Notes under the pieces: generated by a model
The model's input: the letters and a program-made list of their open reading frames with translations, nothing else
Databases searched by the model: none
What the model was told of the DNA's origin: nothing
Source: Escherichia coli
GTDB taxonomy: Bacteria > Pseudomonadota > Gammaproteobacteria > Enterobacterales > Enterobacteriaceae
Direction: 5' to 3' (one strand)
DNA: 10,264 nucleotides
Assembly (NCBI RefSeq): GCF_003334315.1
Contig: NZ_QOWR01000089.1
In this document: positions 1 to 2,312 of the stretch, in pieces
How positions within the stretch are numbered: the first letter of the stretch is position 1
Layout of the letters: each line of letters starts with the position of its first letter
Made by a program: the position numbers and the translations under genes

Positions 1-375
1 GACGAACAGTGGGGCTACGTCGGTGCTAAATCACGTCAGCGCTGGCTGTTTTACGCGTATGACAGGATACGGAGGACGGTTGTGGCGCACGTCTTCGGTG
101 AACGCACTCTGGCCACACTGGAGCGTCTTCTGAGCCTGCTGTCGGCCTTTGAGGTCGTGGTATGGATGACGGATGGCTGGCCGCTGTATGAATCCCGCCT
201 GAAGGGAAAGCTGCACGTAATCAGCAAGCGATATACGCAGCGAATTGAGCGGCATAACCTGAATCTGAGGCAGCACCTGGCACGGCTGGGACGGAAGTCG
301 CTGTCGTTCTCAAAATCGGTGGAGCTGCATGACAAAGTCATCGGGCATTATCTGAACATAAAACACTATCAGTAA
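1..375 (+). CDS. insB: IS1 transposase InsB, C-terminal portion (5'-truncated by window edge); stop TAA at 373-375
   Basis: Open frame from base 1 in frame with ORF 82..375; translation matches the IS1 InsB C-terminus from memory. Confidence 0.9.
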
Positions 376-390
376 GTTGGAGTCATTACC
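1..390 (+). mobile_element. IS1 insertion sequence, partial (3' ~390 bp; window begins inside the element); terminus ...aagttggagtcattacc ends at 390
   Basis: Encodes the InsB C-terminus (…[70 protein letters not shown]) and ends with the characteristic IS1 terminal inverted repeat (ggtaatgactccaac, read on the complementary strand). Exact reverse complement of 9875..10264. Confidence 0.93.
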
Positions 391-451
391 AACGATAGTA
401 AGGAATAGTGGATTCCCAACTCATTCCTCCCAGCAAACCAATTGTTTTCAT
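391..451 (-). pseudogene. ygeA: 5' stub of ygeA (Asp/Glu racemase-family protein), interrupted by IS1 after ~21 codons
   Basis: Minus-strand reading gives RBS aggagagagg followed by ATG AAA ACA ATT GGT TTG CTG GGA GGA ATG AGT TGG GAA TCC ACT ATT CCT TAC TAT CGT = MKTIGLLGGMSWESTIPYYR, then runs straight into the IS1 terminus at 390. Matches the recalled YgeA N-terminus. Confidence 0.75.
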
Positions 452-540
452 TCCTCTCTCCTGATGTGTGTTACCGCAACAAGGCTGAATAAGGAACGAG
501 ACAAACGCCTCAACGGCCAGGTGCCCAATCTCTATTAACG

Positions 541-579: not shown

Positions 580-1998
580 TCAGACGCCGATATTTCTCAA
601 CTTCTCGCCTGCCATCAGTTTGCGTTCGATATGTTCCAGGGTGACATTTTTGGTTTCCGGAATGAGCCAGAAAGTGATGCCCACAAACGCAATGTTCAGC
701 GCAGTGTAGAGCCAGAACGTACCGGCAGCGCCAATGCTGTCGAGCAGCGTCAGGAAGGTCGCGCCGATAATCATATTCGACACCCAGTTCGTGGTGGTCG
801 AACAGGTAATACCGAAATCGCGGCATTTCAGCGGCTGAATTTCAGAGCACAGGATCCACACCACTGGCGCGGCGCTCATCGCATAACCGGCAATACACAT
901 CATCGTCATGCCAACAGAGAGCCATGACAGGCCACTGGAAGCCGTGCCGTTATCAAACTGCATCAGACAATAGCCCAGCACCAGAGTGCCTAACGCCATC
1001 ACGCTGAAACCAATTTTCAGAGCCGGTTTACGCCCTGCTTTATCTACCGTAAACACCGCAATAAAGGTGGCGAACATAAAGGTCAGCCCTACGACCAGAG
1101 TCGCAATCATCTGTTGTTCTGTCGTCGTAAAGCCCGCCATTTTGAAGATACGTGGCGCGTAGTACATGATGATGTTCATACCGGTAAACTGCTGCATCGC
1201 CTGCAACAACATACCGAGAAACACAGCACGACGGACGTTACGGTTGATCTTAAACAGTGCCCAACCGCCCTGTTTTAACTTCAGGCTTTCACGAATTTCG
1301 TTGAGTTCTTCTCGCGCTTTTTCCGACGTATCGCGCAGCATACGCAATACTTCTTCCGCCTCAATATGACGCCCCTTTTCCGCCAGCCAGCGCGGGCTAT
1401 TTGGCAGGAAGACCACCAGAATAATCAGCAGGACTGCTGGTAAAGCAAGAACCCCCAACATTGCGCGCCAGTTACCGCTATAACTGAACGCTGTATCGGA
1501 TAAAAACGCCAGCACGATGCCGAGTGTGACCATCAACTGGTACATACTGATCATCTTACCGCGAACGTTTTCACTTGCCATTTCAGAAAGATACAGAGGA
1601 GCGGTGTAAGAGGCGATCCCGACAGCAATGCCCAGCACCACACGAGCGGCGATTAACATCTCTACGCTGGTCGCAAAAGCGGACCCTATCGAGCCGAGCA
1701 CAAACAGGATGGCCCCCGCCATCAGGCTGTATTTACGCCCCAGGCGGAACGACAGCCAACCATTAAACAGCGCACCAATTGCTGCGCCGAGCATCATGCT
1801 ACTGACCACCCATTCCTGCAAACGGCTGGTCAGCACAAAGTGATCGGTAATGAACGGCAACGCTCCGGCGATTACGCCGATATCAAGACCAAATAACAAT
1901 CCTGCGACCGCAGCAGCTACCGAAACAAACATATTCATACGCCGCGTATCCCGCAAAGAACGTGGCGTTAAAGCAGATTCCGTATTGATAGTAACCAT
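580..1998 (-). CDS. araE: Arabinose:H+ symporter AraE (MFS sugar porter), 472 aa
   Basis: Translation from [31 protein letters not shown]… to …[18 protein letters not shown] matches E. coli AraE from memory. MFS sugar-porter motifs present ([20 protein letters not shown]). The ORF-track extension to 2127 lacks an RBS; the ATG at 1996-1998 follows gcaggaaaaa. Confidence 0.95.
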
Positions 1999-2056
1999 TT
2001 TTTCCTGCCAGCAGAGAGTAAGACATAGTGAAAAAATACGTGAACAATTCACACAG

Positions 2057-2096
2057 GTGTCAGGTCGGAAATAGCATAAATATGGATTAAATTGCT
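2057..2096 (-). promoter_or_regulatory. araE promoter: AraC I1-I2 direct-repeat half-sites with overlapping -35 (CTGACA)
   Basis: In araE sense: cAGCaatttaaTCCATA (complement of 2080-2096), 4-bp spacer, then tgctatttccgACCTGA (complement of 2059-2075). These match the araBAD I1 (TAGCATTTTTATCCATA) and I2 (TAGCGGATCCTACCTGA) half-site patterns at 21-bp periodicity. CTGACA overlaps the I2 end as in pBAD. No convincing -10 was identified. Confidence 0.6.
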
Positions 2097-2266
2097 GCGA
2101 CATGTCGTTATGTGATGGATATTCCAATTTTCAAATTAAGTTGAATTATTGAGATTATTATTAACCAACTAATTTTAAAGAAGATAAAATTCATAAAGTT
2201 CATTAATTGATAATTGATATGGATTATTTCATAACCATGATATGGATTATGATGATCTACAGGTAT

Positions 2267-2290
2267 AAAAAACCCTGCCATGCGGCAGGG
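2267..2290 (-). terminator. Rho-independent terminator downstream of kduD
   Basis: Stem ccctgcc / ggcaggg (2273-2279 and 2284-2290) followed on the minus strand by a run of 6 T (2267-2272), ~20 bp after the kduD stop. Confidence 0.75.
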
Positions 2291-2312
2291 TCATAAAAGT
2301 AAGAAGAATGAA

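Follow-up and report, generated by a model that had tools for sequence, protein, structure and literature searches.

The window, by which we mean the whole 10,264-nt stretch of DNA that was analysed, is the E. coli ygeA'-araE-kduDI-yqeF-J segment, which in MG1655 reads ygeA-araE-kduD-kduI-yqeF-yqeG-yqeH-yqeI-yqeJ. The araE gene lies on the minus strand, and so all of the promoter features described here are read on that strand. Its translation is an intact protein of 472 aa with 0 differences from K-12 NP_417318.1, the low-affinity arabinose:H+ symporter, a member of the major facilitator superfamily. The DNA around the AraC motif shows 100% identity with E. coli chromosomes, and of 5426 complete E. 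coli genomes 5424 have the motif region annotated as araE/kduD. Annotation and translation together bear out the claim of the initial annotation that the gene downstream is an intact araE. The araC gene is outside the 10-kb window, at ~70 kb on the MG1655 map. Across the whole window Rfam gave no RNA families.

The control region of araE is bounded upstream by the intrinsic terminator of kduD, of which both the stem and the T-tract are conserved in the intergenic alignment described below. Between the end of this terminator and the most distant candidate AraC box there are only ~8 bp, and thus the whole control region is packed between the terminator and the araE ATG. The stretch from the terminator to this ATG is 317 bp long, and its length is near-constant between genera. 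The coordinates of the individual features are collected in Table 1, together with the conservation of the elements for which it was calculated.

Both ends of the window, 1..390 and 9875..10264, are the same IS1 end in inverted orientation, and sequences matching them with 100% identity are annotated as IS1 family transposase in plasmids. These two ends enclose a 9.5-kb chromosomal segment. The left IS1 copy cuts ygeA after ~21 codons, leaving a remnant at 391..453. The layout suggests either a contig that ends in an IS1 copy on both sides or something akin to a composite transposon.

Table 1. Features of the araE control region in the window, with the top-base frequency of each element in 40 aligned kduD-araE intergenic regions
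Feature	Sequence	Position	Strand	Top-base frequency	Remarks
araE coding sequence		580..1998	-		ATG 1998..1996, stop 582..580; annotated as araE in RefSeq genomes
Likely araE ribosome-binding site	AGGA	2006..2003	-		
Transcription start region		2024..2026	-		published araEp start ~2024; conserved A at 2026
Probable -10 hexamer	TATTTT	2033..2038	-	0.88	predicted, 19 bp after the -35; TA..TT conserved
-35 hexamer	CTGACA	2063..2058	-	0.96	CTGA (2063..2060), 4 bp, common to the I2-like half-site
Weak I2-like AraC half-site	TGCTATTTCCGACCTGA	2076..2060	-		low matrix score, partial match to pBAD I2
Half-site spacer	TTTA	2080..2077	-		4 bp, direct reading
I1-like AraC half-site	CAGCAATTTAATCCATA	2097..2081	-		
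I1 B-box	TCCATA	2086..2081	-	0.98	
I1 A-box	AGC	2096..2094	-	0.99	
CRP site core	TGGAA-tatcca-TCACA, TGGAAtatccaTCACA	2126..2111	-	1.00 (TCACA)	centre ~-94.5; TCACA invariant
TCCAT box inside the CRP site	TCCATCACA	2119..2111	-		TCCAT 2115..2119; 33 bp upstream of the I1 B-box
Distal box 2, candidate AraC half-site	TTATGAAATAATCCATA	2218..2234	-		B-box 2223..2218; 137 bp upstream of I1
Distal box 1, candidate O2-like AraC half-site	GATCATCATAATCCATA	2241..2257	-		B-box 2246..2241; 160 bp upstream of I1
kduD intrinsic terminator		2265..2292	-		stem 2292..2271 and T-tract; from terminator scan; upstream limit of the araE control region
Unconstrained flanks				0.53-0.57	

The initial annotation described two AraC half-sites and a CTGACA hexamer upstream of araE. 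All three are present as exact strings on the minus strand, but the block that they form occupies 2058..2097 and not 2057-2096, one base off. The 4-bp separation of the half-sites and the overlap of CTGACA with the downstream one, which amounts to 4 bp (CTGA), are both as it described them. The pattern AGC-N7-TCCATA-N16-CCTGAC has a single exact match in the window, at 2059..2096 on the minus strand. With up to 2 mismatches allowed, shuffled sequences give 0.01 matches per window, and any match at all is seen in 3 of 200 shuffles. When the 40-bp araI1-araI2-(-35) block of pBAD, taken from the MG1655 genomic sequence, is aligned without gaps to the window, this site is the best position on both strands with 25 of 40 bases identical, the next best having 21. 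An identity of this size is reached in 1% of Markov-simulated windows.

The half-sites were scored with a matrix made from seven AraC half-sites (I1, I2, O1L, O1R, O2 and two from araFGH), each verified in genomic sequence and with araE excluded. An araJ-type AraC site was tried as a further member and dropped when no clear register could be found. The I1-like half-site is the top match of this matrix in the window with 14.5 bits, the runner-up having 9.5, and it is identical to pBAD I1 at 14 of 17 positions. The I2-like half-site scores only 0.6 bits and agrees with pBAD I2 at 10 of 17 positions (ATCCTACCTGA versus TTCCGACCTGA), mostly in the TCC at positions 8-10 and the CCTGA at positions 13-17. 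This has a consequence for the term direct repeat that had been applied to the two half-sites. The repeat is real as to register and B-box, but it does not extend to overall similarity since the two halves are alike at only 6 of 17 positions; pBAD is no different in this respect, with I1 and I2 alike at 8 of 17.

The core promoter of araE is poor, with CTGACA and TATTTT separated by a 19-bp spacer. Because of this spacer the promoter was not reported by a generic promoter scan limited to spacers of 16-18 bp. The length of this spacer differs between genera: Escherichia, Citrobacter and Klebsiella have 19 bp, Enterobacter-like genera 18 bp. The order of the elements at araE was reportedly described by Stoner and Schleif in 1983 as that of pBAD, namely RNA polymerase, AraC and then CRP. 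The start of transcription can be placed through the supplement of Fontana et al. (2020), in which the PAM-proximal ends of the araEp guides araE_E1 and araE_E2 are given as 91 and 81 nt away from the TSS. These ends map to 2115 and 2105 in the window, and both point to 2024 as the start, give or take 1-2 nt. Taking 2024 as +1, the I2-like half-site lies at -52..-36, the I1-like half-site at -73..-57, the centre of the CRP site at about -94.5 and the -10 hexamer at -14..-9. The corresponding positions in pBAD are -51..-35 for I2 and -83..-104 for CRP (PMC11434276), the 1-bp offset of I2 being due to the 19-bp spacer of araE. The published start thus puts AraC where the initial annotation had put it and not elsewhere, and in this it favours that interpretation.

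The same arrangement is found well outside of E. coli. A comparative scan using one genome per species gave 80 Enterobacterales araE loci, and in ~75 of these we found TCACA-13 nt-[CT]AGC-N7-TCCATA-N16-CCTGAC at a near-constant distance from the ATG, with I1 beginning 94-101 nt before it in the core Enterobacteriaceae. The 21-bp register between I1 and I2 is the same in nearly all of the ~75 loci, with shifts of 1-3 bp confined to a few distant taxa, for example Franconibacter and the metagenome-derived locus MAG L067. The frequencies in Table 1 come from an alignment of 40 non-redundant kduD-araE intergenic regions of Enterobacteriaceae, in which the genomes are related so that the counts are not independent events. 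There the AGC and TCCATA of I1 are conserved at 97-100% per base, and the CTGAC of the -35 is invariant in all 40 sequences. Other genera have TAATTT, TACTTT or TATTTT as the -10 and TGTAA or TGGAA as the left half of the CRP site.

Given this evidence, we hold with high confidence that the site is the native E. coli araE promoter, dependent on AraC and CRP and built to the araBAD architecture. The points that we counted against this reading are the 0.6 bits of the I2-like half-site, its poor or shifted A-box, the 19-bp spacer, the three differences from K-12, one of which is in I2, and the location of araC outside the window. This promoter is already known: it was dissected in 1983, and its start site and the sites for AraC and CRP have been textbook knowledge ever since, so the finding itself is not a new one. 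According to its title, the paper of Stoner & Schleif 1983 (J Mol Biol 171:369) determined the sequence of the araE promoter, where its transcription starts and where regulatory proteins bind to it. More recent work gives an AraC ChIP/qPCR signal at araE, also without arabinose (PMC3738151), and a preprint places two AraC sites, a CRP site, a -35, a -10 and a TSS in the regulatory region of araE. When endogenous promoters were tested for CRISPR activation, none had a basal activity as low as that of araEp, which fits an activator-dependent promoter. Full-text searches of the literature gave no match for the site sequences and no AraC ChIP-exo data.

If the promoter works as pBAD does, an arabinose-bound AraC dimer would fill I1 and I2, and its promoter-proximal DNA-binding domain would be set against the -35, where it could aid both the binding of RNA polymerase and the opening of the promoter. 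Upstream, cAMP-CRP would add to the activation. Without arabinose I2 would be left unfilled and the promoter almost silent. The gene product, intact in the window, is the low-affinity arabinose:H+ symporter. For annotation purposes the value of this result is that the strain has an intact araE along with an undamaged AraC/CRP control region, and from the two together arabinose-inducible uptake is to be expected. The initial annotation had claimed strong sequence-level support for an intact, arabinose-inducible araE, and at that level the claim is sustained; sequence alone is no proof of inducibility, which also needs araC, a gene that lies outside the window.

The control region holds more than these sites. 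Beyond the kduD terminator, the -35 and the ribosome-binding site, the intergenic blocks that are at least 90% conserved are four TCCAT boxes on the same strand (TCCATAT at 2246..2240, TCCAT at 2223..2219, the box in the CRP site, and TCCATAT at 2086..2080, which belongs to I1). In the 40 regions their top-base frequency is 0.97-1.00 versus 0.53-0.57 for the flanks, and across these 40 diverse genomes the three boxes that are not part of I1 are about as invariant as I1 itself. Distal box 1 is the second-best matrix match in the window at 9.5 bits, and its TCCATAT is 95-100% conserved where its flanks are at ~55%. Distal box 2 scores 6.7 bits and its TCCAT is at least 90% conserved. None of the 55 syntenic loci lacks either distal box; the two are separated by 23 bp everywhere save in L024 (33 bp), and distal box 1 is in each case on the same strand at a fixed offset. 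In nearly all of these 55 loci the distance from the I1 B-box is either 137/138 and 160/161 bp or, in Klebsiella, Raoultella and Kluyvera, 129 and 152 bp. Franconibacter, Cedecea, Buttiauxella and Mangrovibacter, in which the upstream gene is not kduD, have a single box at 150-154 bp, and in the araE loci of Erwiniaceae no distal box was found. Upstream of I1 a locus carries on average 2.1 boxes on the same strand, while the other strand has 0.075 and shuffled sequence 0.12.

For the box within the CRP site, the TCCA bases of the spacer are not required by CRP. This TCCAT is 100% conserved in core Enterobacteriaceae, and it is not conserved in taxa with fewer than two distal boxes.

The distal boxes resemble araO2 in having the B-box [AG]TCCATA in the orientation of I1 with no AGC A-box, and their scores of 9.5 and 6.7 bits are near the 11.9 of O2 and the 9.6 of I2, the latter two being scored in-sample. 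They differ from it in lying 137 and 160 bp from I1 rather than 210, and in being two boxes, 23 bp apart, rather than one. The conservation of the boxes, the presence of AraC at araE without arabinose and the looping behaviour of apo-AraC together suggest that the extra TCCAT boxes may be O2-like AraC half-sites, with a possible loop at araE.

The first alternative to be weighed follows from this and is an addition to the promoter as described more than a replacement of it. Apo-AraC could bridge I1 to the distal TCCATA boxes or to the TCCAT in the CRP site, in a way resembling the O2-I1 repression loop, so that AraC is held ready and I2, and possibly CRP, stay unoccupied until arabinose arrives. 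We regard this as possible but tentative. It draws on the boxes being among the most conserved elements of the intergenic region, with a strand bias and fixed offsets, on the persistence of a single box in four genera that lack kduD upstream, and on the boxes being oriented as I1 and lacking the AGC A-box, as O2 does in pBAD. The ChIP signal of AraC at araE without arabinose (PMC3738151) points the same way. That apo-AraC forms loops is an established property, in the phrase of Seabold & Schleif (1998) 'Apo-AraC actively seeks to loop'. Several things weigh on the other side. The binding of AraC to these boxes is deduced from sequence, another protein could recognise the same motif, and the counts of conservation come from related sequences and are not independent. 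The spacing of the two boxes is 23 bp where the canonical value is 21 bp, and the difference between the two classes of offset, 9 bp, does not amount to a clean helical turn. A review also limits the negative action of AraC to araBAD and araC (PMC5566544).

Looking at the geometry for help in this matter is of little use. Helical phasing is uninformative since 137, 160, 129 and 152 bp fit neither a 10.5- nor an 11.1-bp repeat cleanly. The 9 bp between the offset classes, which falls short of a full helical turn, was seen across loci L007-L086.

The stronger form of this idea is that at araE in Enterobacteriaceae generally, the bridging of I1 to extra B-box half-sites by apo-AraC produces an araBAD-like light-switch repression and also pre-positions AraC, and this we consider rather doubtful. 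Were it true, looping at araE would run contrary to the statement that AraC acts negatively at araBAD and araC only. If the distal boxes do bind AraC, then araE, as the transporter gene behind the all-or-none arabinose switch, would possess its own apo-AraC loop, and models of the induction threshold and of the basal level of transporter would be affected.

A second alternative concerns the I2-like half-site, which could be conserved merely as the -35 element. Only the I1-like half-site would then be sequence-specific, the second DNA-binding domain of AraC would dock with little sequence specificity, and the direct repeat would be partly over-read. The score of 0.6 bits is what such a reading would lead one to expect, as are the variability of positions 1-7 between genera and the fact that the invariant CTGAC falls wholly within the -35 hexamer. 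Outside of the hexamer, however, there are conserved bases that equal those of pBAD I2, namely T8 (36/40), C9 (26/40), C10 (33/40) and C13 (36/40), which argues that the I2-like half-site is more than a -35 hexamer. The 21-bp register also shifts in few distant taxa only. One base upstream of the canonical register of the I2 A-box there is a moderately conserved GC, so that this A-box is poor or shifted. The shift is in line with a published comment (PMC2893085) that the I2 sites of this regulon and the consensus determined in vitro are not equally long, the difference being one base. An equally weak I2 in pBAD is a proven AraC half-site, with an affinity ~100-fold lower than that of I1 (PMC11983282). 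For these reasons we think it unlikely that I1 alone is read by AraC.

The last alternative, that the resemblance to araI is due to chance and has no regulatory role, can appeal to the chance recurrence of short AT-rich motifs and to half-sites alike at only 6 of 17 positions, but with an expectation of ~0.01 per window, a correct placement upstream of araE, conservation across families of Enterobacterales and a published literature that treats the site as an AraC site, its probability is negligible and it is already effectively refuted by the conservation and the literature.

We return then to the native, AraC- and CRP-dependent araE promoter as the preferred reading, and it can be set beside two known systems. 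The first is the characterised araE promoter of K-12 (pE, or araEp, in EcoCyc/RegulonDB). Alignment to it had been proposed as a check, and it is the same locus as that of the window, differing from MG1655 in three single bases on the minus strand at 2072, 2053 and 2048, the first in I2 and the other two in the -35/-10 spacer. Of the 5426 complete E. coli genomes, 5422 have the 116-bp araE promoter at an identity of 95% or more, and alleles with 0-1 mismatch over the 116 bp are found in 2084 complete genomes. The change in the I2-like half-site is TGCTaTTTCC in the window versus TGCTgTTTCC in K-12. The changes in the spacer (CCTGtGTGAaTTG) create a perfect inverted repeat, GTGAA-ttg-TTCAC. All three differences are at positions that vary between genera. 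The inverted repeat is not conserved in other genera and is therefore probably neutral. We had considered it as a CRP-type or other operator and rejected this, given that its spacing is wrong for CRP, that K-12 has GTGAG and that the spacer is variable between genera.

The second system is pBAD, to which the initial annotation had likened the promoter in its activator geometry, and the likeness stands up, since every spacing that could be measured equals that of pBAD except for the -35/-10 spacer. In both promoters a CRP half-site TCACA is followed by 13 nt, the 17 positions of I1, 4 bp and the 17 positions of I2, and I1 is strong and I2 weak. In both, I2 overlaps the -35 by 4 bp, as has been described for pBAD (PMC11983282), the hexamer being CTGACG in pBAD and CTGACA in araE. 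The -10 lies at -14..-9 in both, TACTGT in pBAD, when the published start is used for araE. The differences are that the -35/-10 spacer is 18 bp in pBAD and 19 bp in araE, that the A-box of I2 is poorer in araE, and that araE has neither a divergent araC promoter nor an O1. Where pBAD has a single O2 at 210 bp, araE has two TCCATA boxes of putative function that lack an A-box, at 137 and 160 bp, and, in a further difference from pBAD, it also carries a TCCAT of putative function inside its CRP site.
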